Positions 33,355 through 64,000 of a stretch of 64,000 nucleotides of DNA are shown here, piece by piece. Source of the DNA: a virus; IMG/VR virus record IMGVR_UViG_3300040801_003693, positions 1 to 64,000 of that record; one strand, given 5' to 3'. Within the stretch, counting starts at the first letter, position 1, and every line of letters begins with the position of its first letter. The translations under genes were made by a program, and so were the position numbers. A model generated the notes under the pieces. It was not told the DNA's origin, searched no databases, and saw only the letters and a list, made by a program, of their open reading frames with translations.

Positions 33355-34008
33355 TTATACTTCTTCTTCTTCTTTTACTTCTAAAACTTCGTTCTGTTGT
33401 TCTGCGGGTACTGATTCGTCTACTGTTTCCAGTTCTTCTTCTGTGACATTTCTAGTGGGGGCACCAGAAATTTGTACGGGCTTTTGTTTGGCTTTACGTT
33501 GTGCTAGTTCTAATTTGGTAAGTCTAGAAGCATAACGTGTTTTGACAACTTTACTACGATCGAGTACTTTAGTTACCTGTGAACCATCTTCATCAGTATT
33601 AATGATGCAGTTGGAAAGTGACTCGATGGGATTTCCAGGAGTACCGTCAGGTAGTACTACATCCTCTTTTACTGCAAAGAAACCTAATACACTGACTAAT
33701 GTAAAAGGATTCTTCTTGCAAAAAGTTTGTAGTTTGCGGGCTTCACGACGATCGATACCAAATACGTTTATTACTTTCTTTGGAACGCCGTCTTCTGTAG
33801 CTTGATATCTAGCTTTGATCCAGGTACGGATACTTCCGTCTCCATACTCTCTGCTTTTGATTTCATCTACTGTGAGCCATAGCTCGTCATAGGTTTCTTC
33901 AACGTACTCGTCTAAATCCTCTAACTCCAATTCTTCATCAAGGATTTGCGCCTCAGTTTCAGAATTAGTAGTTACAGCAGCTAGATTTTGCTTGTTGTTG
34001 TTAGCCAT
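33355..34008 (-). CDS. putative single-stranded DNA-binding (OB-fold) protein with acidic termini
   Basis: KVINVFG...ARKLQTFCKK...LVSVLG resembles the SSB core (VxxWGxxAExxxxYxxKGxxVxVxG); tail EVKEEEEV. Confidence 0.45.
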   Translation of the reverse strand: MANNNKQNLAAVTTNSETEAQILDEELELEDLDEYVEETYDELWLTVDEIKSREYGDGSIRTWIKARYQATEDGVPKKVINVFGIDRREARKLQTFCKKNPFTLVSVLGFFAVKEDVVLPDGTPGNPIESLSNCIINTDEDGSQVTKVLDRSKVVKTRYASRLTKLELAQRKAKQKPVQISGAPTRNVTEEELETVDESVPAEQQNEVLEVKEEEEV

Positions 34009-34086
34009 GATGTTATTAGTTATTAGTTAAGGTGTATAGATTTGTCTGCTCCGTTTTGAGTCGGGAGCTTGACTAAAGAATTTCTT

Positions 34087-34306
34087 CTCTATCACTTGCA
34101 TCATGAATTAAGATTCAGGACACAAGAATAGAGAGTTAATCCTCTACCATTTGCATCATGAATTCGGATTCACGAATTAAGAGTAATGAATTAACTCTCT
34201 ATCACTTGCATCATGAATCATGAATCAAGAATAAAGAATTATTCCTCTATCACTTGAATCATGAATCATGAATAAAGAATTATCTCTACACATTTGAATC
34301 ATGAAT
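34087..34306. repeat. five degenerate 22-bp direct repeats
   Basis: ctctatcacttgcatcatgaat-like units at 34087, 34142, 34197, 34245, 34284 (periods 55, 55, 48, 39). Confidence 0.85.
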
Positions 34307-34309
34307 CTC

Positions 34310-34694: not shown

Positions 34695-35864
34695 TTACAA
34701 ATTGTCAAGATCAAATTCATCATCATCATCATCATCATCATCCTCTGAAGTAGAAACAGTAGTAGTAATTACTGTTGTAGTAACAGTAGATTCAGTATAA
34801 ACAGTAGTATCAAGAGTTTCCTCATCAATACTATTGAATAAATCTTCAAAAGACATTTCTTCCTCCACGGGAGAAGATTGTTCTACTACAGTTTCCTCTA
34901 ATGGTTTCTCTACAGTAGACTCAACTACAGTTTTCTCCTTAGATTCCTCAATAGCAGATTCAATTACAGTTTCCTCCTCTTGCTCACGAAGTCTTTTGTC
35001 TTCATGAAGCTTTTTCATTAGGTCTAGAAAACCTTTACTTTCAAGTGGAGATATCTTTTTTGCTTCAGAAGTTTCAACTTTCTTCCCATTAAAAGCAATC
35101 CGATCGCCACTGGTTTCAATCTCCCTTACTAATTTTTCACCTCCAGTAATAAGTTCAGCATGAAGAATGTCCCGTAGCATCAATCGCAAATCTATTCCTT
35201 CATTCTTAGAGTTTTCTTTGAATCTGTCGATCATATCTCTTATGTCTACTAAGAATTGAAACTGGATATATTTGCTGTTATTAATTAACTCACACATAAC
35301 CTCCCAAGATTTCTTTTGCAACATTCTAGATTGGTTATTTGTTAAACTGCTAGAACTCCTTCCTGCTTTTGCAGTGTAAGGTTTAACGAGTTTAGCTAAG
35401 AAACTTACAGGAATATCTATACGCCAGTTAAGCTTACGGTTTGCAAGTTCAGGCATAAATATTCCAGCATTCTCATACTGGGCAAGACAGATTTCTCCAC
35501 CCTGTTTTTCTATTCCATAACCATTGGAATGGACTAACATAGGAGTTTCAAATCCTTCTTTGTTACTTCTAGTGAAATAACCCTGAAAACCCCGATAGGT
35601 AGTAGCACCCGTTTTGTTATACAGACTTAATTGGGCACGAGAAATAGATAGGATTAAAAGCTTTCCATGCTCTCTTAGCTCTTCTTTGTCTAACACCTCC
35701 GCTTTATCGATATAATAGTTAAATAATTCCTCATGTGAAAGAGGAGTTACTTTAAGTTCAGCTTCTGCTTGAACAGAGTTATCAACCTTACTATTATTAG
35801 TAGCAGGAGTAACAGTGTTGTTATTTTTAGCAGAGTTGTTAGCGAAATAGTTGCTTAAAGACAT
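34695..35864 (-). CDS. acidic-tailed hypothetical protein, paralog of 41220..42125
   Basis: start moved to MSLSNYF after the AAGGAAAA leader; GYFTRSNKEGFETP...LNWRIDI vs GFITKSGKAGIQTP...INWKFNL; ends DDDEFDLDNL. Confidence 0.7.
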   Translation of the reverse strand: MSLSNYFANNSAKNNNTVTPATNNSKVDNSVQAEAELKVTPLSHEELFNYYIDKAEVLDKEELREHGKLLILSISRAQLSLYNKTGATTYRGFQGYFTRSNKEGFETPMLVHSNGYGIEKQGGEICLAQYENAGIFMPELANRKLNWRIDIPVSFLAKLVKPYTAKAGRSSSSLTNNQSRMLQKKSWEVMCELINNSKYIQFQFLVDIRDMIDRFKENSKNEGIDLRLMLRDILHAELITGGEKLVREIETSGDRIAFNGKKVETSEAKKISPLESKGFLDLMKKLHEDKRLREQEEETVIESAIEESKEKTVVESTVEKPLEETVVEQSSPVEEEMSFEDLFNSIDEETLDTTVYTESTVTTTVITTTVSTSEDDDDDDDDEFDLDNL

Positions 35865-36000
35865 TATGATTTTCCTTTTGATAAGTGTGTTAAGGATTAA
35901 CCTCACCAAAAGAAAAAGGGGACATAAGTCCCCTTTTTTTATTAATTACTTACGTAAAGCTCGACGGGGGAATCTTCCCTCGTCAGACTTTACAAATGCA

Positions 36001-37333: not shown

Positions 37334-37446
37334 AAGAGGGAGACTAAACAATTAACAATTATCAATTAACAATTATCAATGTAAGAATTATTTTCCTTTA
37401 TTGTTAATTGTTTACTGTTTATTGTTAATTGTTTTATCTCCCTCTT
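37334..37446. repeat. STRR-like heptamer palindrome inside a terminator hairpin
   Basis: aagagggaga (CAATTAA/CAATTAT)n ... (TTGTTAA-type)n tctccctctt. Confidence 0.85.
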
Positions 37447-37486
37447 AATTGCTAGTAATAAAATTTACTAGCAATCGTTACAAAAA

Positions 37487-38965: not shown

Positions 38966-41050
38966 TTATTTCAATCTAACTGTTGCTTGTTCTGCTACAG
39001 TATGACTGGTGTTAGGATATAGTTTGCGGAATAATCTTGGTACGCTTTTGATACACTCTAAATTCTTAGGATTTTTCACCCAAGACATTAGTGCATCAAT
39101 ACTCAAGAAGTTACAAAGATCGCCGTCGTCATCTCCGTTGTTACCTCCGTACCACTCGATTGCAGGCACCGTCAGACAAGCTTTAGCAACTAACTGTTTA
39201 TCCCTAACGATGTCAGGAAACTCGCAGTATTCTGTTGCAGGACCAACTATTTTAACTACTGCAAATAAATAGCTGGGATTTGGGTTACGCCATACTAATA
39301 GACGCTTACCTTGAAGCTTGCCAGCCCAAGGATCGTTGGAAGCAAGATAAACCTCACCTTCAGTTACCCAACTGGCTTCAATACCACGAACCTTCATCGT
39401 GTATACCCGCTTACCACTCTTAGTAGCGTTCTTTAGCGGAGTGTTTCTCCCTTCCCCAAACTCGTCGTCTCCTACTACGCTCTGCTTGCAACAGCTAACG
39501 TAAATGTTCAACAACTGGTCTCGGGTAGAAGTCCAGTCTTTTGGACGGTCATCAGGATGTACACCATAATGTCTTATGATATCCACAATACACTTAGCAA
39601 CTAAATTTACACCTCCTTCGGGAGTTAATCCCATGATTTTTGCTAACTCAGTAGAAACCCAAACATCATAACCACCCCCATGAGTAATTACTAAATTGTT
39701 TGGTGCAGCTTTTAAAATACTGCTAATAGAAGACGCATCCTCAAATTCAACGTAGTTTTTATCAGTCCAATAAGTAGCTCCCTTGGGAGTTTTCTCATAG
39801 GCAACGTCGAGAAGAATTGACATCTCCCTTTCGTTCTGATAGCCTGTAGCTTTTAAAGCCAAGCCTAAATCGTTATTGATATTATGGATGGACTGCAAAC
39901 CTTCCCAATAAATCTTACCGGAACCGTTAGAAGAACGGTTTTCCTCAGTCAAAGACAGTTCAGTTGTAGTATGATGCATACCAAAGATTGCGTCTCCGGT
40001 AATAAACATATAGTTTCCACAAAACGAAACGTTCTGTTTCCCCTCATACTGCTTTTTAAGAACAGTAATAAATTCGTCACGGAAGTAACGAACTCCTACA
40101 ACTTTACGAGTTGAAGCGTCAATGAACTGATTAATTTCTCCGATTTGCTTATTGGTAGGAAATGAAGTAATACCAGATGCTCCTTCTACATCTACTTCAC
40201 GAATCTTCATTACCGAACTTTCTCCAGTCATGCAGTACTTAGTGGAAGCCCAAAGCTGTTTAGAAATTTGAGAACCTTTGATTCCCTCCGAACCAACAGC
40301 AACTTTTACGTGGGGTATACGTACAGCAGTTTCGTTCAGAATATTTTGAACGTTTGTAAAATGTTCCCCGATAGATTCGTAGAGTACGAACCCACCATAA
40401 TCCATTAAATCCTCCAAGTTTTTACAAATTGGATTGGGAACAAAACACATTTTGGCAGCTTCACCCGCAACTTTTTGGTTATTGCAGTTACGTGTAATAT
40501 GCTTACCAATGACGCGCAATCTTAACTGACCGCTGGAACTACCCTTCTCAAAATCTAAATCAGTATATTTTATTTGTGGCAACGCTGTAATTAGGAATTC
40601 AAAATCTTCTCCTTTACTATATTGAGCGGCGTTAACAAATGTTCCCGTACCCAATAAGTCTTCTTGAAATATTTTGTCCCCTGGCTTTAATACGTCACCA
40701 ACACGTACCAAATACTTGATACGTGAGCGAACTGCTTTAAGTCTTTCATCCCACTCCATCTTCGGATCTAAATTCCAAACAGAAAGTTGAAACTTAAGAT
40801 TTGCCTCGATTTCATGAAATTCAGTACCAGCAAAGTACACTGACCCAGATACTCCAGGATTTAAAATCGCTTGCAGGTTATAAGAAATAACTGTGCTTCT
40901 ATGTGCCCCCTTCTGACACACAGTCTCTTCTTCAGACTCAAATACTATTGGTGCTTCAACCCCAATGGTACTTTGTGTTGCGGATAATCTGTTGAGACCA
41001 TCTGCTAATTGAGCAGCGGATAAAGAAGCGATTTGTTTGATGTAGCTCAT
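38966..41050 (-). CDS. compact single-chain two-barrel RNA polymerase-like protein
   Basis: LLVWRNPN...NNGDDDGD (beta' RxP and DxDGD), plus beta-like VRVGDVLKPGDKIF and NQKVAGEAAK upstream. Confidence 0.7.
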   Translation of the reverse strand: MSYIKQIASLSAAQLADGLNRLSATQSTIGVEAPIVFESEEETVCQKGAHRSTVISYNLQAILNPGVSGSVYFAGTEFHEIEANLKFQLSVWNLDPKMEWDERLKAVRSRIKYLVRVGDVLKPGDKIFQEDLLGTGTFVNAAQYSKGEDFEFLITALPQIKYTDLDFEKGSSSGQLRLRVIGKHITRNCNNQKVAGEAAKMCFVPNPICKNLEDLMDYGGFVLYESIGEHFTNVQNILNETAVRIPHVKVAVGSEGIKGSQISKQLWASTKYCMTGESSVMKIREVDVEGASGITSFPTNKQIGEINQFIDASTRKVVGVRYFRDEFITVLKKQYEGKQNVSFCGNYMFITGDAIFGMHHTTTELSLTEENRSSNGSGKIYWEGLQSIHNINNDLGLALKATGYQNEREMSILLDVAYEKTPKGATYWTDKNYVEFEDASSISSILKAAPNNLVITHGGGYDVWVSTELAKIMGLTPEGGVNLVAKCIVDIIRHYGVHPDDRPKDWTSTRDQLLNIYVSCCKQSVVGDDEFGEGRNTPLKNATKSGKRVYTMKVRGIEASWVTEGEVYLASNDPWAGKLQGKRLLVWRNPNPSYLFAVVKIVGPATEYCEFPDIVRDKQLVAKACLTVPAIEWYGGNNGDDDGDLCNFLSIDALMSWVKNPKNLECIKSVPRLFRKLYPNTSHTVAEQATVRLK

Positions 41051-41219: not shown

Positions 41220-42125
41220 TTACATATTATCTAAATCACTTTCTTCCTCCGTTAATTCATTAAATAAAGACTGTATCTCTGCATCAATATATTCTATTTT
41301 TATATTTGATTCAAAGTTATTTAAATCAAGTTCTCTTGAAGATTCAATTACAGTTTCTTCTTCCTCTATTTCTAATCTCCTTTTTAGATGGTCTGTAACT
41401 TTTACTTTATTGACATAATCATTTGATTCTTCTACAACTCTTCCTTTCATTCTGTCCATAACAGAGCTAGGTCTATCTACCTTATGGATATAATCATCCC
41501 CCGGAGAGACAAGCTTTATTGCATATATCTCTGGTTTAGATATAAATACAGTAAATGCTTGGGTTGTTTTACCGTTTGCTAGTGGAATAGTTTTTAGTTC
41601 TCCTACACCTTTTGAAGAATCCGCAGATTTTACAACCATCATTTGAATCTGTAACTTCTTACGAGCAGTTACATACTCGTAAAATTTACGCCACAGATTT
41701 CCTTCTCCTTGAACGGTAGTTTTTTCTATGCCTAACATTTCTCTAATTAGAGGGGCAGAAAGATTAAACTTCCAGTTAATTGGAATCCCATGTAGCTCAG
41801 AATTATGGGATTCTAAGTTTCTAGAGATATCATCAAATTCTGTTAGTTCAATTTTTCCTTCTGAGTTGGGTTGTATTCCCCATCCTCTCCAAGAAGTTAG
41901 GAATGGAGTTTGAATTCCCGCTTTTCCTGATTTAGTTATAAACCCATTGTTTACAGTAACGGTTGTCCCACCAGTACTAGACGACTTTTGCTCCGGTCCT
42001 GATAATGATAAGGTCAGTACAAATCCGTTCTCTTTCACCCAGGAGCGATCGCACTCTTGTGTAAGGTCAACTAAGTTGTTAAAAATTTCTTGTAAAGACC
42101 ATTTACCGTTCTTTGAAATAGCCAT
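41220..42125 (-). CDS. acidic-tailed hypothetical protein, paralog of 34695..35864
   Basis: start moved to MAISK (GAGGG SD after the leader hairpin); ends EEESDLDNM. Confidence 0.7.
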   Translation of the reverse strand: MAISKNGKWSLQEIFNNLVDLTQECDRSWVKENGFVLTLSLSGPEQKSSSTGGTTVTVNNGFITKSGKAGIQTPFLTSWRGWGIQPNSEGKIELTEFDDISRNLESHNSELHGIPINWKFNLSAPLIREMLGIEKTTVQGEGNLWRKFYEYVTARKKLQIQMMVVKSADSSKGVGELKTIPLANGKTTQAFTVFISKPEIYAIKLVSPGDDYIHKVDRPSSVMDRMKGRVVEESNDYVNKVKVTDHLKRRLEIEEEETVIESSRELDLNNFESNIKIEYIDAEIQSLFNELTEEESDLDNM

Positions 42126-42465
42126 AGTATATCCCTCTTTTTTATTTGCTCTAGACTTGTCAAATAAAAAGGGAACGGATTTTATGTTTGTCTTCATAAT
42201 AAAAACTATCTGGGTAGCAGCGTTATCTGTCGCTGTATTAATAAGTAATTTATTTGTTAGTCTTTTATACTTGTTTTTTGTAACAAAGAACAACTAGCAA
42301 TATTACTTAAATATTTTTATTATTTACTCAGATAATTTTATTCCTGTGTATGTATACTTAAGTATGTATACTTTTTATGTATTTTAAACTTCAATATTTA
42401 AGTAGGGGTATAGAATACTTATGGAACGAATTATTTTATACCTCACTCACATTATATTAAATTTT

Positions 42466-42915
42466 CTATATAAAAGAATAAGCCCAAAGGAGTATATTTA
42501 GTTCGTTTGCACGTAATAGTTTTGGGTCTATGTAAGCTTGCGAACAAGATCTCATCTCTACTCTTTCTGCGTGTTCTCCTCCTAAGTAAACACATATATT
42601 TTTACCTTCAGCTTTTGCAAAATTTATTTTACCGCAAGCATCTTCTCCAAAAGGAGATTTGCTTTTATACGAAGATGGTAAATAACAACTTACTACCCAA
42701 TTTGCTTCATCAGCAGCAAATCTAAATTGCTCAAAGTCTTCATGATGAATAAAGACCATTACTCCTATCTCCCCCGTCTCTAAATTTTTTACTCCTAGTT
42801 CACAATATTCTTTCCCCTTGGCAGGATAAAAATATTTACCTACCACTACTTGAAACTTTTTAATTTCTGAAGTTACATTGATGCGATTGTTTTTGATCTC
42901 GTTAAATAATTTCAT
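42466..42915 (-). CDS. cassette protein, hypothetical
   Basis: 149 aa with its own leader. Confidence 0.65.
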   Translation of the reverse strand: MKLFNEIKNNRINVTSEIKKFQVVVGKYFYPAKGKEYCELGVKNLETGEIGVMVFIHHEDFEQFRFAADEANWVVSCYLPSSYKSKSPFGEDACGKINFAKAEGKNICVYLGGEHAERVEMRSCSQAYIDPKLLRANELNILLWAYSFI

Positions 42916-42978
42916 TTCTTTTCTTTGTATTATTTGTACAAAGAAAAAGGGGAGACATTGCCCCCTAATTAATATAAA

Positions 42979-43464
42979 TTAGATATCTAAATATTTTTCA
43001 ATTTGATAATCTTTTTTTAAACAATATTCATTTTTCATCACATCTTGAATTAGTTCTGACATTAAATAAATATTATTCTGATTGCTGAATGCTTGAGCTT
43101 CTTCTAACCACAAACTTTTCTTATAATTACTCTCAATAAAAGGAGTTATTTCTTGCGAAGAAAAAGTTATCTTTTTGTTGTTTCTTAAGAGAAAGTATTG
43201 GAATGCATGAATTAATTCATGCAGAAAAGTTGAGTATGAAGGTCTACGATATAAAAATATCGTCCCAATATAGTCCTCAAACTTTTCCCAGTTTTGAATA
43301 AACTTACCGTTTAAGTTATTTTTAATATAACTAGTATTAATTTTTATTCTAAACTGATAATTTGTTAAATAATAAATATCAGCTAGCAAGTTTATCTCAT
43401 CCTTATTTAAACATCTACAATCCAAAGAAATATGTACAAAATCTAAAGAATGTTCGTTAGCCAT
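42979..43464 (-). CDS. cassette family A: HExxH zincin-like metalloprotein
   Basis: TFLHELIHAFQ...EEAQAFSNQ. Confidence 0.7.
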   Translation of the reverse strand: MANEHSLDFVHISLDCRCLNKDEINLLADIYYLTNYQFRIKINTSYIKNNLNGKFIQNWEKFEDYIGTIFLYRRPSYSTFLHELIHAFQYFLLRNNKKITFSSQEITPFIESNYKKSLWLEEAQAFSNQNNIYLMSELIQDVMKNEYCLKKDYQIEKYLDI

Positions 43465-43535
43465 GTTAAATCCTTTTGTATTTTGGTTACAAAAGAAAAG
43501 GGGGCAATGCCCCCAGTAATACTGTTAAACTTTCC

Positions 43536-44396
43536 TTAACTTTCTATTTGTTTCTGGATAGAACTTCTAAACTGCAATGGTATACTATCCAAATGTTTTG
43601 TGGCTAATTCTTTGGCAAAATCTAAATCAATGTTATTTTGCCTACAATATTTTTGTATTGGTTTGTCATGATATTCTTTGACAATTCTAGAATTATAGGA
43701 TAACGCTTTACCATTACCTACTGTTCCTAAATACAAAGCTACAAAATCATTTTTTCTGTTTGGTTTTCCAGACAATCTAAAAGCCCAAGATTGTTTGGGA
43801 TATAGTAAATTGTATTTTGGAATTTTACTGTAGACATCTGGTCGAGGTTGATTCATTGCTAACCTAGCATAACAAGGGTCTATATTCAAAGACTTGAAAT
43901 CCTTTTTAAATTCTTTTGAATTTATATTTCTACTTATATCAAAAGCTCTTACTCCTCCGGGGGTAAGATATACTTTCCATAAACTATTATGTTGTTTTGT
44001 ATAAGCAATAAGTCTTTTGTAAACATCCCCAACATTCTTGATTGTGATGCTAGTTGGATGATGAGTGTCTTCTGGAAAATCCCAGTCTCCCATTGGAATA
44101 GAAGAAGTAGAAACAAACTCTACAAATTTACCTTTTGGTAATCCACATATTTCTTCCCCTACCCGTTTTCTGCTTGGTATCCATTCTACTCTGTATATTA
44201 CTCCGGGTTCCAATAACTTTCTTGGAACTGCTACATCGGCAGGTGTTAAAAAATGATTAAATTTGATACTATTTTTTATTTTATATTTTCTATTTTCGTA
44301 AATGTGTTGAGATAATGAATAAGCGGTGTTTATAACCTTGTGGTCAAGATTGTTGTTTATGATTTGGTTCGCATTAATTAAAAAGTTGTAGCTCAT
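43536..44396 (-). CDS. cassette protein, possible AEP/primase-like fold
   Basis: start moved to MSYNF; MGDWD, YLTPGGVR, IDPCY, RLSGKP resemble AEP motifs I-III. Confidence 0.45.
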   Translation of the reverse strand: MSYNFLINANQIINNNLDHKVINTAYSLSQHIYENRKYKIKNSIKFNHFLTPADVAVPRKLLEPGVIYRVEWIPSRKRVGEEICGLPKGKFVEFVSTSSIPMGDWDFPEDTHHPTSITIKNVGDVYKRLIAYTKQHNSLWKVYLTPGGVRAFDISRNINSKEFKKDFKSLNIDPCYARLAMNQPRPDVYSKIPKYNLLYPKQSWAFRLSGKPNRKNDFVALYLGTVGNGKALSYNSRIVKEYHDKPIQKYCRQNNIDLDFAKELATKHLDSIPLQFRSSIQKQIES

Positions 44397-44458
44397 GGCT
44401 TTTTCTTTGTATTGTTTAGTACAAAGAAAAAGGGGCATAAGCCCCCAATAGAAATTAA

Positions 44459-44824: not shown

Positions 44825-44888
44825 TTAAATTTCTCCTTAGTTGGAAGTGAGTCAACTAAGAAGAAAAAAGGGAGTATGAATAAATCAA

Positions 44889-44972: not shown

Positions 44973-45048
44973 TATTTTTCCTTTTTGAGTTGAGTACCTT
45001 CTAAAGCTAAAAGGGAGTATTCTTTTAGCAGAAACGTTGGGCTTGACT

Positions 45049-52403: not shown

Positions 52404-52609
52404 GAGGTTTCCCTTGTTCTTAAGTGCAATAAAAAAGGGACACTCAAGTTCAATTTGTATAAGTTTCTGTGCAGAAATCACGTCTGGGTGGGGGGTACCC
52501 ACACACAAATAAATTAGTTAAAATATCCGCAGCAACTTTTTTAAAATAGAAAGCTCTTGATTAATTTAGTAAACTGTAGCTATAGTATAAATAATAAATA
52601 TTATCTAAT

Positions 52610-54926: not shown

Positions 54927-55284
54927 TTTAGAGGATTATAAAATATCCTATGAGGTGACAGTATTGCCCAACGTATTATATGCAGAATTAGTAAATGCAA
55001 AAACTCCTTTAGTGTTTGATAGTTTTTATATTCCAGAAGAGTTAAAAAATTTTGCGCTTGAATGTAGATTTATTCTTTACGACAAAGATGGAGGATGTGT
55101 AGAGTTTTCTAACAACATTACTTTGGAACAGCAAATAGTTTACACGTTAAATTTAGTTCCATTAAAGATGATACATAAATTATGTTCTTCAGTTAAAAAT
55201 CAATATTCAAAAGAATATCCTGTAATTGCGGGGTCTGATTCAATAGCAGATTCTTCTACGCTATCTTCTAATGATTCAACATAA
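54886..55284 (+). CDS. hypothetical protein, likely start 54916; overlaps the giant gene tail-to-tail
   Basis: 122-132-aa ORF. Confidence 0.5.
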   Translation: MFLQIYRMHSMNINLEDYKISYEVTVLPNVLYAELVNAKTPLVFDSFYIPEELKNFALECRFILYDKDGGCVEFSNNITLEQQIVYTLNLVPLKMIHKLCSSVKNQYSKEYPVIAGSDSIADSSTLSSNDST

Positions 55285-58200
55285 AGTGCTTGTTGAGTAG
55301 CACTACTGATTTCTTCATCTCCGGAGAAAGTAGAATAAGTAATATACTGAGTCATTCCATCTTCAGCGTACACTGCAACATCATCAACTGTATTCTGTTC
55401 ATCTGTTTGTCTTACTTCTCTAATATAATTTTCAGCGTGTTGTAAAGTAGTTTCTAATATAGAAGGTTGAGGGGAATCAACTATAAAGTTTTGTATTTGT
55501 TGACCAACCATCATTCCTAATATAGTAGATGCAATTGCACCAACTCCAGTGCTAATTATTCCTCTCATATTATTATATTTATCCATATCCAAAGACATCT
55601 TTGCCTGACCGAAAGGTGTCATTTTATTCATGAGTACATTACTAAAATATTCAGTACCGAACATACCGATAGCACTCATAGTCATTTCTCGTGCAGCTAA
55701 ACCTGCAATTGCCTTACCCGTATCACCATCACTATTAGCGATCGCCATTCTTGCTTTAAAAGCAGTACCGGATGCAACTTGAGCTACACCCCCAGCACCT
55801 TTGCTCATACCTTTGGTACCTAGCATATAAGATTTAACGTGCATAGCAGAACTAATAGAGTTACCCATTACCTGTTGGAATGCCTCTGGGTTAACTTCAC
55901 CAGAAGCCAGAGCCTGACCTGCCATAATAAGTGCGGGTAAGAAAACTAATTCAGCAGCGAGATCGGCGTTTCTTGTTCCGGCTAATTTACCAAAAGCAGA
56001 TTTAGAAGCTTTAGTATTTAGTCGAGGATTATGTCTTGTCGAATATCCTTGTTGAGATTCTTGAATAATTTGACGAGTTACTTCTTCCATTACATCTATA
56101 TCGGGGTCTGCAACACCTGCTGCTACTTTAGTTTGAATTTGTCTCTGAACTACATTTTTAGCTTCTTCTTGAGATAGTCCCATTGCAGTTAAATTCTTTA
56201 CCATACCTTCGGCAGTATAGGTTTTAGAAGGATTAAGATTATTAGTACCTTCATAGATTTTCATTACAGAGTTTGCCATTGCTCCAAACTGAGTAGAGTT
56301 TAATCTACTCATAATTAGTTCGCTTGAGCCTTCAGCAGATTGAATAAGCTGTTTGTAAAATTCCATTAGCTGCATTTTATCAGGGGCATTACTTAATCCT
56401 CCTTGCTCCATTAATTTTAAAAGTAATTCATCCGGTTGTAACTGATGGTTATTATCTTTACTTTTAAAAGTGGCTAACATAGAATTCATAAAATATGCCA
56501 TTGACTGAGGGGAAATCTTTCCTGCTGTTGCAAGCTGTACGTAAGCAGCACTTGTAGGGTCTTGAGAAATATCCATTGTAGAACTTTCCCCTTTAGAACC
56601 AGAACTCAGTTTACTTCTTACTTGATTGTAATTAGCAAACTCTACTAATTTCTCTCCTTTCTCCCCGGCAAAAGTTTCAATTGATTGCTTCATCTGAACG
56701 TACTGATGAGCGTGAAGCAATTTATCTTCTGTTGATATTTTACTGTAATGTTCTATTACATCTTTTCCTACTAAGCTTTTAAAACTTTCATAATATTCTT
56801 GCTGCTCGATGCTTAAGGTATCAAAGTAGTTTTTATCTCTAACAACTTCTTCCATACCTTGAACTAAATAATCTAATTTAGATTTTTCCTGTACCAATTC
56901 TGGACTATTTAAGTTCTTCATCAACATACTTTGCAAAGTTCTGCCTGTTGATTCTGCACTGTTCCAAGCTTTATTTTCTGCATCATAAGAAAGTTCTTGA
57001 CCTCTAGCTTTCTCAAATGCAAATGCTGTAGCTAAATTTAATAAATCTTGTTTAGTTTTATAAGATGCAACCAATGCCATTTTATTTACGTTCATTTCAT
57101 TGATTGGTTTATAATCAGAAGATACTGCGGTTTTAATACTAGTTGCAATTTCTCCTTGTTCATCTACAAATCCCAATCTTTTCATATAGTGTTTTTCTAC
57201 ATTGGAATCAGATATATTAATTTCAAATCTTCCCAAAACTTCTGCTTGAGCATTCTTATTCTTTTCATCTGTATATTCTGTCTTTAAAGTTTGTACTGTA
57301 TTAACTAATTTATCTAACTGCACTAAAGATTTTAATCCTGTACCAGGACCAAACTTACCTACAATTAAATCGATTATTCTTTCTCTATCTTCATCACTAT
57401 CTGCATTACGATAAGATTCAATGTCTTTATTAATTTCATTTAAAAATTCAACAGAATCTTTTGGCTTAATCGAATCTCGCATTAACTGATTTATAATTTG
57501 TAAGAATCCACCCATTTGCATAGAACGGGCACGTCCGGATTCAGCAGACTTCATCATATCAGTATAAGCATCCTCTCCCATATTTGCTTTTACCATATCT
57601 CCAATCTTCCCATCTGTATCGTTTTCCAATAAAAATGACAATGCTAAAAAAGGAGATTCAGTATATAACAAAGAAGCCATACTATTATACGTCTTGCCTA
57701 AAATCACAGAACCAGCTTGACCTAAAGTCTTGAGCATCATCTCCCACTGATCTGTATTTACTGCCGTACCCGCAGTACCTCTAGATTGATATTTAGATAA
57801 CTGTTCCCCAGCAGAAGTTGTAGAAAATATTCTTGTAACGTAGTCAGTAATACCTTCCTCTCCGGAGGAGACAGCCTGTTGTAAATCGGTTCTAATTTGC
57901 TCTCTATATTCAGGAGTAGATTCTAATAGTGATTTAGCAAAAGTGTTTTGTGGATCTTGTCCAATCAGCATTGTTTTAAATGCTTCATCATTCATTAAGG
58001 CTTCTTTATCTTGAGCAATACTAGTTACTGCTTGATGTAAAGGACGAATGTTATTAATAACATCTTCCATCCCTCCAAATAATCCTCTACCTTGCTCAAT
58101 TAAAGTAAACAGTGTTCCAGTATCCATACCTCCTAAAATCTTCTCATCTACTTTAAGATAATTGGAAACGTACTTGACGCTAGCCTTTCTCATCTCTTGC

Positions 58201-61200
58201 ATTGATGTAGATTTATTAGCTAGCTCTACTGAATGCTTTAAGTCATCTCTTTGCTGTACTAATCTAGAAATTTTAGTATCGGTCTTTTCTAATTCAGCTT
58301 GCATTATAGCTAGCTTTTCTGGATCTGTAGTTTGGGGTAGTCTCTGTTCTATTTTAGATTTACTTATTTCGTAGCGAGCAATTAATTGATTTGTTTGCTC
58401 TACTCTCAACTCAGTAGTTTTCATGTTACTAATAATTGCAGATACCGAGTCCCCATCAAAGTCTCCTCCTTGAGATTGATAAGGTCCTATTGGATTAATC
58501 ATTCCTAATGTCTGGTTTCTTTTACCAGAGAATCTAATTGATACCCCCATCTCTTCTAAAGAATTATCTAAATCTTCTAAATTAAAAACATTGTATTGAG
58601 TAAGTTTATTAATCTCAAAGTTTCCTAAAGGAGGAGATCTCCACATTTGAGTCTGTGATAAGTTTAAATTAGTAAAAGTATGAGTAATTAATGATTCTAA
58701 TCTTTGATTAATAGTTTTTAAATCTATCGGAGTAGCACTAGGGTTTAAATCTGTTTCTAACTGTGATACTCTACTATTAAACTTTTCAATATGAGAATTC
58801 ATTTGACTCTTCTTAAAAAAGTCTCCGTAATCTGCTTCTAATCTTTCTACATAATCTGATACTATCTTCTTAGTACTAGCAATTTTTGATTGAATAGTAT
58901 TCGCATCAATGTTAACTCTGTCTTGATGCATTTGATTTAAAAGCTTTGTAGTACCTTTTCTTAACTCCCCTTCTAGAGAACTAACTCTAAGTTTGGGAAC
59001 AAATGTATTACTACTTCCTAATTGCAATCCTTCTATTACAGTAGGAGTTTGTCTAAAATATCTTTCTTGAGAAGTAATATTTTTTAAAGTCTTTTTACTT
59101 AATACTTCATCTTTATTATTTCTAAATATAAACTCCTTCCCTGGAGAATTCATACTATTAACAGCCATGCTTTGCAACAAATGCATTTCGGATACTGCTG
59201 TTAGTCTTACATAGTAATCACCCTCTGCACTGTTAGCATTCCTTTTTAAACCTTGATAGTATTCAATTCTTTGTTCAATATCAGAAGCAATTTTCATTAA
59301 ATCAGAATCGTTTTCCGCACTTTGTATTCTAGATACTAAATGTTTTGATTCACTGACTAAAGTATTTAAATCGTAAGTACCTACTGGAGAAATACCTTGG
59401 TGTAACATTTTATATTGAGATTCAATCAACTTTCTTTCTGTTGAAATCCTACCTTTACGTCTTATTAAATTCTTACGTTGAGCTTCCAACTCTGGACTAA
59501 TTGAATTACCTCTAGCTAATCTTTCAACAGTTGATTCAGGAGTTTCTCCCACTGTTTTATTTGGACTTATATCTTCTAATTGTTTTGCAATGTTGTTTAG
59601 ATTCTTATCTACTTTTTTAATTCTTTTATCTAGTACTGCGATCGCCTTTAATCTATCTTCCGCTGCGGCTCCTCCAAACTTATTGAACAAAGCTTCGGGA
59701 CCAATTAGTGCTTTTTCTGGAACAAACAAAGAGGCAGCGGCTGTAAAAGTACTACCATCTAATCCTACTCTGGCACCAAATTGAGTTTGGAATCTAGAAT
59801 TAATTAATTCTGATTGAACTTCAATTGGAAAGTTAAGTGCTGTTTCTTGAAATGTTTCAATCTTCTTAGCCATATCTGAAGCAATCTCAAACTCTCCCGT
59901 TTCACTATCACTTAAATAAATTTTGTCTAATACTTGGTCTACATCACTACGAGCAGCTAATCCTTCCCACAATACTAATTGAGACTTAACTGTTTCTGCT
60001 ACAAATTCTCCATATTGATCCCCTAACACTTTAAGGTCATCAGGAGCTAGCGTAAAACTAGTAATAGTTCTCTTCTTATCAAACTTTACTTTATTACCTT
60101 CTACTACTAAATGCGGAAAAGAAAACGCCATGCGACTAGCACCAGTTACCTGCATTCCTTTAATTACCGCCTGGGAGTGAGATATATCTCCTAACTTGTT
60201 TTCTAACAATTTATACTGGGTAGAAATGTCTTCTAATTCACCCATTGTAGTTGAGAGTCCGATACTAACTGTAGCTTGTATTTGTCCTAACGTTGCTCCA
60301 CTTTTAATCTGAGTTATTAAAGACTTTGCATATTCACTATCTCTTGCAGCTATTAAAGATTTGTTTTTAGTATCTCCTTCTAATATTGTCAGCAGCATTT
60401 CTTTTTCTGAAGAGGAATATCTAAACCCAGCAGCAGAAGTAATCTCTTTTAATGTAGAGAATAAAGAGTACTTTCCTTTATATACTTTAAAATCTTGAGC
60501 AGTAATTACACCACTATCATAAAATCCGATAAACTGACTTTTAAAATAAGAACTTCTAGCAGTACTGCTAATTAAATCTACTGCTTCTAAATTATTAGTT
60601 GCAGCAATAAATTGAGTTTGAGAACCACCATATATAGAGCCAAGTACACTAGACAATACATTTCTTAATGCAGGTACGTTTCCTTTACTTAATGCTCCCG
60701 CTTGCGTACTGTATTCCTCTCCTACTAAATGTTGTGCTTCTAAATAAGCTTTGTTTCTAGAAGACATTGATACTTTAGATTGAGAACCAGCAGTAGAAGA
60801 AAACATACCTACTACTCTAGAATAATTAGCAATTCTATTTAAAATAGAACGAGCTTCTTTTCTCTTCTCTTCATTATCTAAATTATTTATATCTTCCCCG
60901 GCGATAAAAGCTAATTTGTTTAAAGTTACATCATCATCTAAGTTAGCTGCTTCAACTGCAATCTGGTCGGCTCCCATTAACTGTAAGGTTAAATCTATTC
61001 CTCCAGCAAGCATTCCTAATTCTCTACCACGACCAGAACTATCTAAATTTAAATAGCCATTTTTGATTATGTCTCCAGTAGGGTCACTGAGTAAATTACT
61101 GACTTTAGATTTTAATCTAACATCTGCTCCTCTTACTCCCGCTAAAGTATCGGCAATATCCTGCATTGATATGTAACCTAAAGTGCGAATGTTAATGTCA

Positions 61201-61760
61201 CTTACATCCGACTTCATTGAATTTATTAGCTGCTCTGCTATATCTATATCTGTAGGGTTTGTGCTGTCCCCCATTTTAGTTGTTAATGTTTTTAACTTAT
61301 ACATATCTGATAAATAGTTACCTAAACCAGCACCTGCTGATAGTCGGGTTAATTCACTTAATGCAGCTTGCTTTCCAGTTTGGTCAAACATCTCCGTACC
61401 AAAACTAAGCATTAAAGATGCAGCTAAAGTTTTACTATCGTTGTTTAGCAAAGCATCTTTATATATTTGTCTACCCCCTTTTGTATAACTTAATATTTGA
61501 GCGCCATGCTCAAACATATAAGATTTAAAGTTAGAAGGGTTTGCTACTCCTTGAATTTGTTCTATACCAATACTGCTACCGAGGAAAGCACCTTTTGAAT
61601 TACGGTTCCATGATTGAGCTATATCTCTAATAAAAGTTCCGTAGGCATAAATAGGAACACCTTTAAATAAACCACCCGCTTGAGATTCATTTCTTCCCCC
61701 TGCATAATTTACTTTTGTTCTGTCATAATTAATTTCTACTAAAATTTCATTCGACTGCAT
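55200..61760 (-). CDS. giant virion-type two-barrel RNA polymerase, catalytic part plus tape-measure-like C-terminus
   Basis: GGLFKG; MWRSPP...QGGDFDGD; later ILGKTYN and RDSIKP; A/G/M-rich hydrophobic C-terminal region. Confidence 0.75.
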   Translation of the reverse strand: MQSNEILVEINYDRTKVNYAGGRNESQAGGLFKGVPIYAYGTFIRDIAQSWNRNSKGAFLGSSIGIEQIQGVANPSNFKSYMFEHGAQILSYTKGGRQIYKDALLNNDSKTLAASLMLSFGTEMFDQTGKQAALSELTRLSAGAGLGNYLSDMYKLKTLTTKMGDSTNPTDIDIAEQLINSMKSDVSDINIRTLGYISMQDIADTLAGVRGADVRLKSKVSNLLSDPTGDIIKNGYLNLDSSGRGRELGMLAGGIDLTLQLMGADQIAVEAANLDDDVTLNKLAFIAGEDINNLDNEEKRKEARSILNRIANYSRVVGMFSSTAGSQSKVSMSSRNKAYLEAQHLVGEEYSTQAGALSKGNVPALRNVLSSVLGSIYGGSQTQFIAATNNLEAVDLISSTARSSYFKSQFIGFYDSGVITAQDFKVYKGKYSLFSTLKEITSAAGFRYSSSEKEMLLTILEGDTKNKSLIAARDSEYAKSLITQIKSGATLGQIQATVSIGLSTTMGELEDISTQYKLLENKLGDISHSQAVIKGMQVTGASRMAFSFPHLVVEGNKVKFDKKRTITSFTLAPDDLKVLGDQYGEFVAETVKSQLVLWEGLAARSDVDQVLDKIYLSDSETGEFEIASDMAKKIETFQETALNFPIEVQSELINSRFQTQFGARVGLDGSTFTAAASLFVPEKALIGPEALFNKFGGAAAEDRLKAIAVLDKRIKKVDKNLNNIAKQLEDISPNKTVGETPESTVERLARGNSISPELEAQRKNLIRRKGRISTERKLIESQYKMLHQGISPVGTYDLNTLVSESKHLVSRIQSAENDSDLMKIASDIEQRIEYYQGLKRNANSAEGDYYVRLTAVSEMHLLQSMAVNSMNSPGKEFIFRNNKDEVLSKKTLKNITSQERYFRQTPTVIEGLQLGSSNTFVPKLRVSSLEGELRKGTTKLLNQMHQDRVNIDANTIQSKIASTKKIVSDYVERLEADYGDFFKKSQMNSHIEKFNSRVSQLETDLNPSATPIDLKTINQRLESLITHTFTNLNLSQTQMWRSPPLGNFEINKLTQYNVFNLEDLDNSLEEMGVSIRFSGKRNQTLGMINPIGPYQSQGGDFDGDSVSAIISNMKTTELRVEQTNQLIARYEISKSKIEQRLPQTTDPEKLAIMQAELEKTDTKISRLVQQRDDLKHSVELANKSTSMQEMRKASVKYVSNYLKVDEKILGGMDTGTLFTLIEQGRGLFGGMEDVINNIRPLHQAVTSIAQDKEALMNDEAFKTMLIGQDPQNTFAKSLLESTPEYREQIRTDLQQAVSSGEEGITDYVTRIFSTTSAGEQLSKYQSRGTAGTAVNTDQWEMMLKTLGQAGSVILGKTYNSMASLLYTESPFLALSFLLENDTDGKIGDMVKANMGEDAYTDMMKSAESGRARSMQMGGFLQIINQLMRDSIKPKDSVEFLNEINKDIESYRNADSDEDRERIIDLIVGKFGPGTGLKSLVQLDKLVNTVQTLKTEYTDEKNKNAQAEVLGRFEINISDSNVEKHYMKRLGFVDEQGEIATSIKTAVSSDYKPINEMNVNKMALVASYKTKQDLLNLATAFAFEKARGQELSYDAENKAWNSAESTGRTLQSMLMKNLNSPELVQEKSKLDYLVQGMEEVVRDKNYFDTLSIEQQEYYESFKSLVGKDVIEHYSKISTEDKLLHAHQYVQMKQSIETFAGEKGEKLVEFANYNQVRSKLSSGSKGESSTMDISQDPTSAAYVQLATAGKISPQSMAYFMNSMLATFKSKDNNHQLQPDELLLKLMEQGGLSNAPDKMQLMEFYKQLIQSAEGSSELIMSRLNSTQFGAMANSVMKIYEGTNNLNPSKTYTAEGMVKNLTAMGLSQEEAKNVVQRQIQTKVAAGVADPDIDVMEEVTRQIIQESQQGYSTRHNPRLNTKASKSAFGKLAGTRNADLAAELVFLPALIMAGQALASGEVNPEAFQQVMGNSISSAMHVKSYMLGTKGMSKGAGGVAQVASGTAFKARMAIANSDGDTGKAIAGLAAREMTMSAIGMFGTEYFSNVLMNKMTPFGQAKMSLDMDKYNNMRGIISTGVGAIASTILGMMVGQQIQNFIVDSPQPSILETTLQHAENYIREVRQTDEQNTVDDVAVYAEDGMTQYITYSTFSGDEEISSATQQALYVESLEDSVEESAIESDPAITGYSFEY

Positions 61761-61895
61761 ATTAGCACCGAGTATTCTAACATCTCTTAGTACTTCTTTT
61801 GCATCTTCAAAGTAAAATGATGCAGCATTACTAGTTGCAGTACCTGTAGTAAAAGAAGGTTTAGACTGAACCTTTTCTATTAAGTTACTTGCTAC

Positions 61896-64000
61896 TCAAA
61901 ACTGGTTACGAGAATCTACTACTCTATCTTTTATATAATCTCCCGCAGCTTCATTCCATTTATATACCCAAGTTTTATTATCACTGCTATCAAACTGTAT
62001 TATCTCTCCGGAGGAGGCAAGTATGTTTTTAATAGCACTCCAGCTATCTACTCCTAATGCTTGTTGTAAATCGTCAGTAGATACTGTTGCTCTAAGTTTA
62101 CTGCCCTGATAACCTTTAACTGCACGATCTACAAAACCCTGTCGCATTCCACTGGAACCTCCGAATTCAGGGTTTGCATAATAGTAATCACTGTAAGCAC
62201 CTTCTAACTGCATCAGCATTACAGAAGGACCATAGCGTTGAGAAGAACCTAAGAATCCTCTTACGGCAGAAGCATGAGTATCTATACTTAATAATGTAGC
62301 TCTAAGTAATTCTGCTCCTACACCGTCATAGGTATCTTCTTCTCTAATTCCAAATTCAGTTGCTACTTGTTTTCTGATTGCTTCTAATTCTAAGGATAAC
62401 TCCGCACTTAATACAGGTGCTATCCTATCTGCATATAATGCACCTAAAGAATATTTAGTAAAGTTGAAATTATTTCTATATCCATCTGCTAATCCACCTT
62501 GAATATCTTTAACGTATAATTGTCTTAATTGATCTACAGTTTTAACCGTAGTTGTCTGACCCACGTTAGAAAATCTATTTGTATAAACCCCACTAAAATT
62601 ATCAACAATATCTTGATAACTTTGAGATAAATCTCTTAAAGGTCTAGAACCAATTACGTTTTTAATTCTTTGTGGAATTTGAGATGCTTTCTTTTTTTGG
62701 TCAAAGTAGAATTGCATTACAATTCCATCTTCTCCAGATAAGCTTTCCAACTGTTCTCTATAATCATCTGTTGTTTGTCTAGCAAAGTCGTCTCCTAAAA
62801 AAGCAATAGTTTTAAAATAACTCTCTGCTTCTTCTACTCTTAATATTGCTCCTACGTGAGCATCCTCTATAATTTTTAAAGAGGTAACATCTCCTGTTTT
62901 CTCATGCTTGTGATAAGGAAGCATATTATTTAAACCAAACTTAATACCTTCAAAATAATTTGATGTTTCTCTACTACCACCTCCTTCTGCAACTGCCATA
63001 TAAAGCAATTCACCCGTACCCAAATCTGAAGTAGCTCCAAAAGAAGCGGGAGTATTCATTAATGCAAATTTATTTAACGCTCCTACTCCTTCATATCCCG
63101 CTGTATTAATTACGTTAACAGTATCGTATCTTCTATCGTTAACTCCATATGCAGGTCTTTTTCTTCTTGCTTGCATTTTAGAATAAGTATTTGCCTGCCC
63201 GTATAACAAGAACGATTCAAACTTCTCTGTAGATAAATTCTTAATCGTTTTATTTAAATCTCTATTATATAAATAATCTTTTTGAGCAGAAACAAAATCA
63301 AATCTTACGTCTGCAAATGTATCGTCATCTCTACTCAATAATGTATTTAATCTGCCAATAATAGAATCTTCTGCCGATAAGTTAGCACCACCTAATAATA
63401 ATGCTTTACGAATGTCTACGTTATCCGTAGAAGCATAAGCTTTTATCTTATTAGTAATCTCTAATAATTCTGATAATCTACTTGTGTCCCCCGGCTTGAC
63501 ATTAGTTAAATTACGAATAGTTTGAGAAACATCTCCACTATCTTGTTTGTACTTAGCTTCAAACTGTGCTAATCCTAACAGCACTCTTTCTTTATCTATA
63601 CTAAGTAAACTGTTAATGTCTCCTGTAGAATCAAATATTCTATTTAAGTAATTAACGCTACCTGTAATTAAATTGTCATAGCTTTCCGTATTGACAGTGC
63701 TGTATCGTGTTACAAATTCATTCTTAGGAAATCTTACCAAGTTTAAATTAGCAGATTCAGATGCAACAGAAGCGATTAAAGATAGCGTGCTTTCTATAGG
63801 AGATAATGTTTCTCTTTGTCCTCTTCTAATTAAAACTTTATTTCCATTACGTTCAAAACCAGTAGCTATATCGCTGTTGGACATATTTACAAATTCTGTT
63901 TCACTGATTAATTTAGATTTGTTTATCTCTAATACAAAACCTTCACCTGCTCCAGAACCTGAAGATAAAGTTGTAAATTTATATTTTAATTGACTACCTC
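61896..64000 (-). CDS. upstream part of the same giant protein (5'-truncated by the window)
   Basis: frame open from the window edge to TGA at 61896-61898, then open again for 45 codons into the 55200..61760 ORF. Confidence 0.7.
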   Translation of the reverse strand, partial: GSQLKYKFTTLSSGSGAGEGFVLEINKSKLISETEFVNMSNSDIATGFERNGNKVLIRRGQRETLSPIESTLSLIASVASESANLNLVRFPKNEFVTRYSTVNTESYDNLITGSVNYLNRIFDSTGDINSLLSIDKERVLLGLAQFEAKYKQDSGDVSQTIRNLTNVKPGDTSRLSELLEITNKIKAYASTDNVDIRKALLLGGANLSAEDSIIGRLNTLLSRDDDTFADVRFDFVSAQKDYLYNRDLNKTIKNLSTEKFESFLLYGQANTYSKMQARRKRPAYGVNDRRYDTVNVINTAGYEGVGALNKFALMNTPASFGATSDLGTGELLYMAVAEGGGSRETSNYFEGIKFGLNNMLPYHKHEKTGDVTSLKIIEDAHVGAILRVEEAESYFKTIAFLGDDFARQTTDDYREQLESLSGEDGIVMQFYFDQKKKASQIPQRIKNVIGSRPLRDLSQSYQDIVDNFSGVYTNRFSNVGQTTTVKTVDQLRQLYVKDIQGGLADGYRNNFNFTKYSLGALYADRIAPVLSAELSLELEAIRKQVATEFGIREEDTYDGVGAELLRATLLSIDTHASAVRGFLGSSQRYGPSVMLMQLEGAYSDYYYANPEFGGSSGMRQGFVDRAVKGYQGSKLRATVSTDDLQQALGVDSWSAIKNILASSGEIIQFDSSDNKTWVYKWNEAAGDYIKDRVVDSRNQF

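Follow-up and report, generated by a model that had tools for sequence, protein, structure and literature searches.

The first 64 kb (hereafter the window) of the IMG/VR virus record IMGVR_UViG_3300040801_003693, which is 135,938 bp long with an estimated completeness of 78%, carry two genes whose predicted products share the RxP...DxDGD active-site signature of two-barrel RNA polymerases (RNAPs). One encodes a 694-residue protein (P0001) and the other a protein of some 3,700 residues (the giant); an array of small genes with leaders of two adjacent hairpins lies between them. The small protein is well supported as a two-barrel polymerase and probably has an unusual build, split over two genes; the leaders are real, with a conserved design. 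The giant is probably a polymerase as well, given its invariant R..P...DFDGD motif and one structural match. Overall, we consider it reasonably probable that this phage encodes two enzymes of the two-barrel RNAP type, with a giant that would be packaged and leaders that would silence read-through transcripts.

The small polymerase and its probable second subunit

38966-41050, minus strand: P0001, small polymerase core subunit, 694 aa, a beta-like half followed by a beta'-like barrel
39119-39133, minus strand: codons of the P0001 catalytic loop
36001-37281, minus strand: P0032, 426 aa, probable second subunit, two genes downstream of P0001

A first-pass annotation, made from the sequence alone, had pointed to an RxP...DxDGD active site in the 694-aa protein, and this was borne out. 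In the translated open reading frame (ORF), WRNP occupies residues 587 to 590 and GDDDGD residues 639 to 644. An exhaustive profile-free scan of 1.84 billion representatives yielded 14 relatives, all of which were aligned, and R588, P590, G603, G639, D640, D642, G643, and D644 are invariant across the alignment (14/14). A K-x6-K pair near residues 193 to 200 is kept in all eight full-length relatives (8/8) and appears to represent the two basic residues of the beta-type barrel, with roles taken from the accessible part of an earlier comparison (PMC7824862).

An AlphaFold model of P0001 built on its own alignment (predicted local distance difference test, pLDDT, 81.4; predicted template modeling score, pTM, 0.73) contains paired barrels, the feature on which the annotation had staked its structural check. 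Foldseek returned 207 PDB matches at E ≤ 0.001, and the best 50 of the 207 are all RNAP subunits, nearly all of them second-largest (beta/Rpb2-type) subunits, plus two beta' chains; the beta-type matches extend over ~380 columns at a probability of ~1.0 and come from archaeal, eukaryotic, bacterial, and plastid polymerases. VIA-align, a structure search independent of Foldseek with 50 matches listed, ranked QDE-1 first (Z, 10.7; root mean square deviation, 6.3; 292 aligned; model residues 36 to 656) and also recovered gp62 of P74-26 (Z, 8.3; residues 46 to 655), gp96 of P23-45 (Z, 6.9), plant RDR2 (Z, 7.5), and beta/Rpb2 subunits (Z, 8.3 to 8.8; residues 27 to 407), including RPB2 of African swine fever virus (Z, 8.8). 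The whole-model matches to QDE-1, gp62, and gp96 cover both barrels, residues 548 to 651 match isolated double-psi barrels (Z, 7 to 7.5), and residues 78 to 185 match beta-flap domains (Z, 5.8 to 6.0). Non-virion beta-like chains of AR9 and PhiKZ match as well (Z, 6.3 and 5.9, respectively), and phi14:2 gp66 is not among the 50 matches listed, which is no test of kinship. The model thus gives good support to a two-barrel RNAP fold with both barrels in one chain. The predicted barrel order, beta-like and then beta'-like, would be that of the known single-chain enzymes, with a flap-like insert in addition; RNA-dependent RNA polymerase (RdRP)/YonO-type enzymes are described as having no flap domain in the accessible part of the source (PMC7824862). 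In this architecture the beta-like half would comprise the flap-like domain and a barrel with two lysines, and the beta'-like barrel would carry the three aspartates.

P0001 matches nothing in Pfam or PHROGs, and nothing among PDB sequences searched with single sequences and profiles; tblastn against 50,697 phage records found nothing, and a pattern scan found no member of the family in IMG/VR or metagenome contigs. We are dealing with a further, very divergent two-barrel family in cyanophages, whose small enzyme goes without Pfam or PHROG annotation. In BFVD, the P0001 model finds its best viral match in the second half of a MaMV-DC protein that is uncharacterized (E, 1.3e-16; 631 columns); from its segment size, this protein would be a homologue of gp064 of the Microcystis phage Ma-LMM01. 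Also matched in that search are a "minor tail protein" segment of a siphovirus (E, 1.2e-5) and two proteins, both uncharacterized, of Acinetobacter phage vB_AbaM_ME3 (E, 1e-9 and 1.9e-5); judging from predicted structures, all three may be further unannotated two-barrel polymerases.

Ma-LMM01 gp064 (1673 aa, annotated as hypothetical) carries RTP...GDADGD, and a profile of its four-sequence family can be aligned to the P0001 family over 545 columns (probability, 94%; E, 1.5e-7; gp064 746 to 1373 with P0001 11 to 668); the alignment continues colinearly into P0032 (58.8%; 253 columns; gp064 1360 to 1663 with P0032 100 to 406). A P0001 relative of 1146 aa (P0010) carries a C-terminal extension in which residues 819 to 1076 match P0032 residues 124 to 356 (BLASTP against a small set, E of 8e-9; hhalign over 225 columns, 92.3%). 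A large protein collection contains two homologues of P0032, one of them encoded on a 7,270-bp contig, a length shared by the contig of the closest P0001 relative. Complex prediction for P0001 with P0032 residues 105 to 405, based on our own shallow alignments, had a median score of 0.61 in three runs, whereas the best of three controls scored 0.00; a score of 0.61 is attained by 58 of 80 solved complexes and by 2 of 110 mismatched pairs. Contacts agree by at least 64% between runs, the pLDDT of the partner is at least 62, and the predicted interface takes in residues 590 to 593, the RxP strand. The prediction supports, but does not prove, binding of the two proteins. Because a relative carries the module fused and the complex prediction was passed, P0032 is probably the missing C-terminal module that single-chain relatives bear after the catalytic barrel. 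In all of the single-chain enzymes compared in the accessible text of a published analysis (QDE-1, gp64, gp96, and gp66), a bridge helix and trigger loop follow that barrel (PMC10770324), and P0032 is the candidate supplier of both for P0001. The small polymerase would accordingly consist of at least two gene products, the P0001 beta-like/beta' fusion and the P0032 C-terminal module. A split of this kind, with a 694-residue barrel fusion plus flap-like domain and the rest on a second gene, bears on how beta and beta' parts can be cut and joined.

The giant protein

55200-61760, minus strand: C-terminal ORF of the giant, 2186 codons, with R..P at 58629-58640 and DFDGD at 58449-58463
61761-61895, minus strand: 45 sense codons, in frame, linking the TGA to the next ATG; conserved in relatives
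61896-61898, minus strand: single in-frame TGA splitting the giant
61899-64000, continuing to 66299 outside the window, minus strand: N-terminal ORF of the giant, 1467 codons, 700 of them in the window

The giant had been read as one frame of over 2,900 codons with a WRSP...DFDGD motif. The motif is present, with WRSP at residue 1040 and DFDGD at residues 1100 to 1104 of the 2186-aa ORF, but the frame is not uninterrupted, since a TGA splits it into ORFs of 1467 and 2186 codons. Both ORFs lie in the same frame, and read through the TGA they amount to 3,699 codons. Of 12 relatives, 10 are single proteins of 3514 to 3736 aa, and their homology continues through the stop and the 45 codons that follow, with A, S, T, K, or E at the stop position. 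Both ORFs match phrog_31006, a profile with the length of Ma-LMM01 gp080 (3562 aa); gp080, annotated as hypothetical, is the homologue of the giant, with 24% identity over 99% of the 2186-aa ORF. Among the sequencing-run contigs compared with 61400 to 62400, one of 158 nt ends 4 nt from the TGA, at a depth of ~4. The TGA may be a sequencing error, a recent nonsense mutation, or a real split. A suppressor tRNA was ruled out, the phage genome having no encoded tRNA genes, and genome-wide TGA recoding was rejected: 19 other TGA stops have short in-frame extensions, and long TGA read-through was found in no other gene of the phage.

The catalytic motif is strongly conserved. DFDGD is kept in 12/12 relatives (as DWDGD in one), and R2554, P2557, G2559, N2595, T2597, L2598, P2603, D2613, D2615, G2616, and D2617 are invariant in a family whose members are 24 to 38% identical. 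R..P lies 59 residues, and a T-L-x3-N-P strand 10 residues, upstream of DFDGD, a spacing and pattern that resemble those of P0001 and also those of beta'. A structural hint comes from BFVD, where the P0001 model matches segment 2 (1187 residues) of a Ma-LMM01 "PLD phosphodiesterase domain-containing protein" (E, 2.7e-4; probability, 1.0; 259 columns) in a list made up otherwise mostly of RNAP beta subunits. From its size, with the segment equal to one third, this protein would be gp080, and, if the thirds are equal, segment 2 would stop before the DFDGD loop, in the part where a beta-like barrel would be expected.

Sequence searches added little. The hhalign comparison of the giant with the small family covers 26 columns only (51%), and a second barrel was not located when six pieces of the giant were aligned with the small families. 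The giant has no match in Pfam (nor its N terminus at E ≤ 0.1), the Pfam RNAP families PF00623, PF05183, and PF00562 have none in the phage's own genome, and megablast of 55 to 64 kb against the 50,697 phage records found nothing. A profile comparison with P23-45 gp64 and gp96, suggested by the first-pass annotation, recovered the catalytic loop shared with the giant, and neither HMM (hidden Markov model) searches nor hhalign found similarity beyond it. These negative searches say little about the giant, because P0001 fails the same tests. An ESM Atlas search with the giant core gave best scores of 0.84 to 0.87, under the 0.9 line; one of these matches is an RdRP-named cluster, which serves as a lead only.

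Near its N terminus the giant has two conserved HKD-type motifs (H-x-K ... G-[ST]-x-N) at residues ~320 to 360 and 600 to 625 (genome positions 64,350 to 65,400), and in UniProt the Ma-LMM01 homologue goes under the name of a PLD phosphodiesterase domain protein. The portal gene is ~3 kb away from the giant gene, and the major head gene 12 kb. With its two PLD-type HKD motifs near the N terminus and a beta'-type catalytic loop around residue 2,600, the giant is, we propose, most likely a polymerase, one that would be packaged and delivered with the DNA; a search for published virion proteomics of the Ma-LMM01 giant found nothing relevant. Hydrophobic segments at the C terminus pass threshold here and in 0/3 relatives tested, and we make no claim of membrane insertion from them.

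Leaders, upstream elements, and the Ma-LMM01 lineage

42913-51935, minus strand: small-gene cassette array, with a terminator-like hairpin and a ribosome-binding-site-covering hairpin per gene
51871-51935, minus strand: double-hairpin leader
51159-51214, minus strand: double-hairpin leader
50242-50298, minus strand: double-hairpin leader
49859-49921, minus strand: double-hairpin leader
49439-49492, minus strand: double-hairpin leader
48827-48888, minus strand: double-hairpin leader
48349-48407, minus strand: double-hairpin leader
47862-47926, minus strand: double-hairpin leader
47426-47498, minus strand: double-hairpin leader
46939-46984, minus strand: double-hairpin leader
46365-46432, minus strand: double-hairpin leader
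44394-44447, minus strand: double-hairpin leader
43462-43516, minus strand: double-hairpin leader
42913-42968, minus strand: double-hairpin leader
35862-35939, minus strand: double-hairpin leader before P0033

A relaxed structure scan of the minus strand from 31.0 to 52.6 kb gave 35 candidate leaders. By our own criteria (intergenic position, a GC-rich first stem of at least 5 pairs, and a second stem of at least 8 pairs), 15 were accepted, 14 of them at 42.9 to 51.9 kb and 1 at 35862-35939, and 20 were dropped because they were weak, duplicated, or located within ORFs; by eye alone, three more were noted. Each of the 15 accepted leaders folds into two neighboring hairpins (z, −3.6 to −7.1 relative to shuffles). 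The first hairpin has a GC-rich stem and ends in a T-run, the form, to judge by its sequence, of an intrinsic terminator. This T-run, with a few pyrimidines, is at the same time the 5' arm of the second hairpin, whose 3' arm is the purine-rich ribosome-binding site (RBS), ending 2 to 14 nt before the ATG, in the minimum-energy folds of 15/15; the second stems have 8 to 14 pairs and loops of 4 to 16 nt. Terminator-like sites are five times overrepresented at 33.0 to 52.7 kb (51 versus 9.6 ± 3.5 in shuffles), whereas sigma-70-like matches to the Escherichia coli consensus are not enriched there (75 versus 75.3 ± 10.2). Under strict settings, a scan of the whole genome gave 43 terminator-like sites, of which 17 are followed by a second hairpin and an ATG; 12 of these 17 are on the minus strand at 42.9 to 51.9 kb, and the other 5 are scattered on the plus strand, at least 3 of them inside ORFs.

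The cassette genes at 42466 to 52508 fall into four paralogue families with 23 to 62% protein identity (one comprises the genes at 46444, 48905, 49499, 49933, and 50302, for example), and those put to a family search received no family assignment. In the loop region of the second hairpin, an 11-nt core is identical in 7 copies and differs by 1 or 2 changes in 3 more, all at 46.8 to 51.9 kb, while the genes behind these leaders are only 31 to 45% identical as proteins. Because the core is conserved despite divergent proteins, the leader appears more conserved than the genes, whether through selection or conversion. Rfam returned two subthreshold chance matches, and a MAFFT alignment of the leaders was not structurally consistent. 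Several cassette ORF starts at TTG or GTG are probably wrong, because the leaders put the ATG further inside.

In T4 gene e and I-TevI, according to the accessible part of the published work, a hairpin masks the RBS in read-through RNA and a promoter inside gives translatable RNA (PMC3014915). We propose a similar arrangement for the duplicated small genes that form the array upstream of the small-polymerase module: each gene would be insulated by its terminator-like hairpin, read-through transcripts would be translationally silent, and the transcripts from which a gene is expressed would start within its leader. Such a design, with the RBS hidden by the T-run of the preceding terminator, is a compact insulator, potentially useful in its own right. 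The first-pass annotation had instead likened the hairpins to N4 promoters and had set the small polymerase inside a region where every gene has the same double-hairpin leader. The 15 leaders are real, but they pair a terminator-like hairpin with one covering the RBS, and the small polymerase gene adjoins the array, with an AT-rich palindrome in place of a double-hairpin leader.

37334-37451: AT-rich palindrome with G/C clamp, upstream of P0032
38833-38943: AT-rich palindrome upstream of P0030
41095-41212: AT-rich palindrome upstream of P0001
37487-38797, minus strand: P0030, 436 aa, with an acidic C-terminal tail like that of P0032; likely start, read by eye, at an ATG four codons in
41220-42293, minus strand: P0031, up to 357 aa, start uncertain, with an acidic C-terminal tail; paralogue of P0033
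34695-35909, minus strand: P0033, likely start 35864, with a long acidic tail; paralogue of P0031, behind the leader at 35862-35939
34071-34287: four tandem units of 48 to 55 nt between the polymerase module and the gene at 33355-34008

P0001, P0030, and P0032 are each preceded by a near-perfect AT-rich palindrome of ~100 to 120 nt. The three copies are 74 to 88% alike, consist of 14-nt repeat units with G/C-run clamps, have after them a T-run and what by eye is a small conserved hairpin, and are confined to the fronts of these three polymerase-module genes. Among 33 minus-strand ORFs at 28 to 53 kb, only P0030, P0031, P0032, and P0033 have a similar acidic tail, finishing in hydrophobic-D-x-[DN]-[ML], which may be a shared docking peptide. 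PHROGs gave one weak match of unknown function for 10 neighbors (P0030 to P0033 and six genes at 33.4 to 46.4 kb, three of them in the array).

Much of this layout recurs in Ma-LMM01. Both phages have, in the same order, the giant, a divergent block, double-hairpin-leader genes, the small polymerase, tandem repeats, and small genes. The double-hairpin architecture, in unrelated sequence, stands before gp067, gp066, gp065, and gp064 of Ma-LMM01 and after gp064, and it is found in 5 of 18 related viral loci (6 copies each in L004 and L005, 4 in L006, 2 in L007, of which 1 is plausible, and 7 in L011). Ma-LMM01 also has a repeat array (6.7 units of 42 bp at positions 43271-43551 of its record) in the same relative position as the units at 34071-34287 here, each of which contains, by eye, a short inverted repeat. 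The repeats may be stacked early promoters. Transcriptome sequencing, as reported in the accessible text, places gp054 to gp063 earliest (PMC5780444), and these lie directly after the repeat array, downstream of gp064, and are not the double-hairpin-leader genes. By synteny, the earliest genes of the window would be the gene at 33355-34008 and those below it, not the array at 42.9 to 52 kb, and on which genes are earliest the Ma-LMM01 data would speak against the annotation's cascade in which an injected giant transcribes the cassettes. That annotation had also been aware of no cyanophage with such an arrangement. We found no literature linking Microcystis phages or cyanophages with two-barrel polymerases (subscription journals fell outside our coverage); the arrangement itself is, by sequence comparison, present but unannotated in the Ma-LMM01 group.

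The host is likely cyanobacterial, to judge from related sequences: the giant protein retrieves 10 of the 50,697 phage records, 8 of them named Microcystis phage, 1 "Cyanophage," and 1 Microcoleus phage. GC content is ~32% in this phage versus 47 to 48% in related loci. Four sequencing runs matched the phage, all DNA contigs from one microbial-mat sample (4/4), so that no RNA run among them contains the cassette array. Outside the window, at 94130-95431, a 106-codon ORF is followed by one TAG and 326 in-frame sense codons that include a 323-codon ORF, an adjacency that may be due to chance. Other genes of the window, including the replication and nucleotide genes of positions 1 to 30000, are as follows.

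1059-3456: MoxR-like AAA protein and a VWA/metallopeptidase partner
4426-5436: RecA
7319-8908: ThyX
11861-12937: tail-collar protein
13839-16220: class II ribonucleotide reductase
22572-24971: GHKL ATPase

Competing explanations and known systems

Several results weigh against two polymerases in this phage. The giant frame bears a stop codon in this record. A model of giant residues 2001 to 3100 (pLDDT, 59.7; pTM, 0.32) predicts no barrel around the motif, where pLDDT is below 50 (residues 553 to 622 of the folded part); a fold search with this poor model gave only coiled-coil matches; and giant profiles found nothing past the catalytic loop of 24 to 26 residues in PDB sequences, Pfam, or the small family. 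Among five giant-bearing viral records, none matches the P0001 profile (0/5) and three match gp064 (3/5), with one complete record matching neither. P0001 stops 50 residues past its catalytic motif, with only short helices there, and lacks a bridge helix and a trigger loop in its own chain; the ESM Atlas model of P0032 is poor and gave no usable match. The giant might instead be a virion protein, internal or for ejection, that has a PLD-type nuclease domain and whose DFDGD loop binds metal for some other function, leaving the small enzyme as the only polymerase. The absence of a barrel from the (poor) model and of profile matches beyond the loop would fit this, as would the two conserved HKD motifs and a UniProt name that cites PLD only. 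We nevertheless think it unlikely: R..P and the T-L-x3-N-P strand are invariant at beta'-like spacing between relatives of 24 to 38% identity, the DFDGD of P23-45 gp96 is identical, and the predicted gp080 segment 2 matches the P0001 model.

Transcription of the array is a separate matter. T-run terminator hairpins are signals of multisubunit polymerases and fit host transcription at least as well as our proposal. The host polymerase could transcribe the array, with hairpin 1 an ordinary terminator, hairpin 2 translational or stabilizing in function, and the phage enzymes serving, e.g., late genes. The Ma-LMM01 study agrees with this, since its accessible sections report sigma-70-like promoters before all gene classes with no phage-specific motif, describe host transcription as unchanged during infection, and make no mention of a phage polymerase (PMC5780444), and the earliest Ma-LMM01 genes differ from those with double-hairpin leaders. 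Sigma-70-like matches are not enriched at 33.0 to 52.7 kb, a weak point with an E. coli consensus, and leaders of 45 to 75 nt leave no free room for a standard promoter, also a weak argument; we regard host transcription of the array as a serious but somewhat doubtful explanation. It seems improbable to us that an injected giant uses the second hairpins as N4-like DNA hairpin promoters. Hairpin structure is conserved while stems differ, and the 11-nt loop core is kept (7 identical and 3 near copies) despite 31 to 45% protein identity, yet the hairpins have stems of 8 to 14 pairs and loops of 4 to 16 nt and include the RBS, leader similarity could be inherited by gene duplication, and by synteny with Ma-LMM01 the earliest promoters are better sought in the tandem repeats at 34071-34287. 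Finally, the small enzyme might be an RNA-dependent polymerase or replication primase and not a transcriptase, as its best single structural match is QDE-1, described as having RNA- and DNA-dependent activity (PMC9508822). Most of its matches are DNA-dependent beta subunits, its flap-like domain is one that RdRP-type enzymes are described as lacking (PMC7824862), and the characterized phage members, P23-45 gp64 and gp96, transcribe DNA according to the portion of the source consulted (PMC10770324), which makes this very improbable.

We continue to favor two phage-encoded two-barrel enzymes, both of which would synthesize RNA, with a giant that would travel in the virion and leaders that would contain promoters; the pairing of either polymerase with particular templates is likewise inferred. 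More tentatively, the Ma-LMM01 lineage as a whole could run a two-polymerase program, with a DNA-delivered PLD-plus-polymerase protein of ~3,600 residues, a second polymerase (gp064, or its split counterpart here), and promoters within leaders that would keep read-through RNA untranslated. If true, the published conclusion that Ma-LMM01 relies on the host sigma-70 enzyme alone would fall. Both Ma-LMM01 and the MaMV phages are grown in Microcystis aeruginosa cultures, so the question is directly testable.

To our knowledge, two-barrel single-chain polymerases of phages come from few systems: YonO, crAss-like gp66, and P23-45 gp64 and gp96. The resemblance to P23-45 noted in the first-pass annotation holds up. 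There, as the accessible text describes it, a tape-measure-fused virion RNAP (gp96) is paired with a non-virion RNAP (gp64) (PMC10770324); here too, a very large structural-module protein with DFDGD, a motif it shares with gp96, accompanies a small two-barrel enzyme. In contrast to P23-45, the small enzyme is split (P0001 plus P0032) and has a beta-flap-like domain, and in contrast to gp96, the giant is not annotated as a tape measure, has its motif at about residue 2,600 rather than 779, and bears N-terminal HKD motifs. Ma-LMM01 differs in turn: its gp064 is one chain with an extra ~745 aa at the N terminus, and its gp080 is uninterrupted, unlike the TGA-split giant. PhiKZ and AR9 resemble this phage in spreading beta and beta' functions over several small genes, but their beta and beta' barrels are on separate chains, whereas here the barrels are fused in 694 aa and only the C-terminal module stands apart. 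N4 promoters, with stems of 5 to 7 pairs and loops of 3 nt, are recognized by gp50, a T7-like enzyme; the leaders here have stems of 8 to 14 pairs and loops of 4 to 16 nt, and the candidate enzyme belongs to another superfamily. The giant would nonetheless be like N4 gp50 and crAss-like phi14:2 gp66 in being a very large phage protein that embeds a polymerase, thought in those phages, in the accessible text, to be delivered with the DNA (PMC10770324). The nearest cultured relative has been described as T4-like. For the leaders, the known precedent is that of T4 gene e and I-TevI. In T4 a mapped late promoter lies in the 5' arm; here the promoter is putative, a terminator-like hairpin supplies the 5' arm through its T-run, and 15 or more genes share the design.

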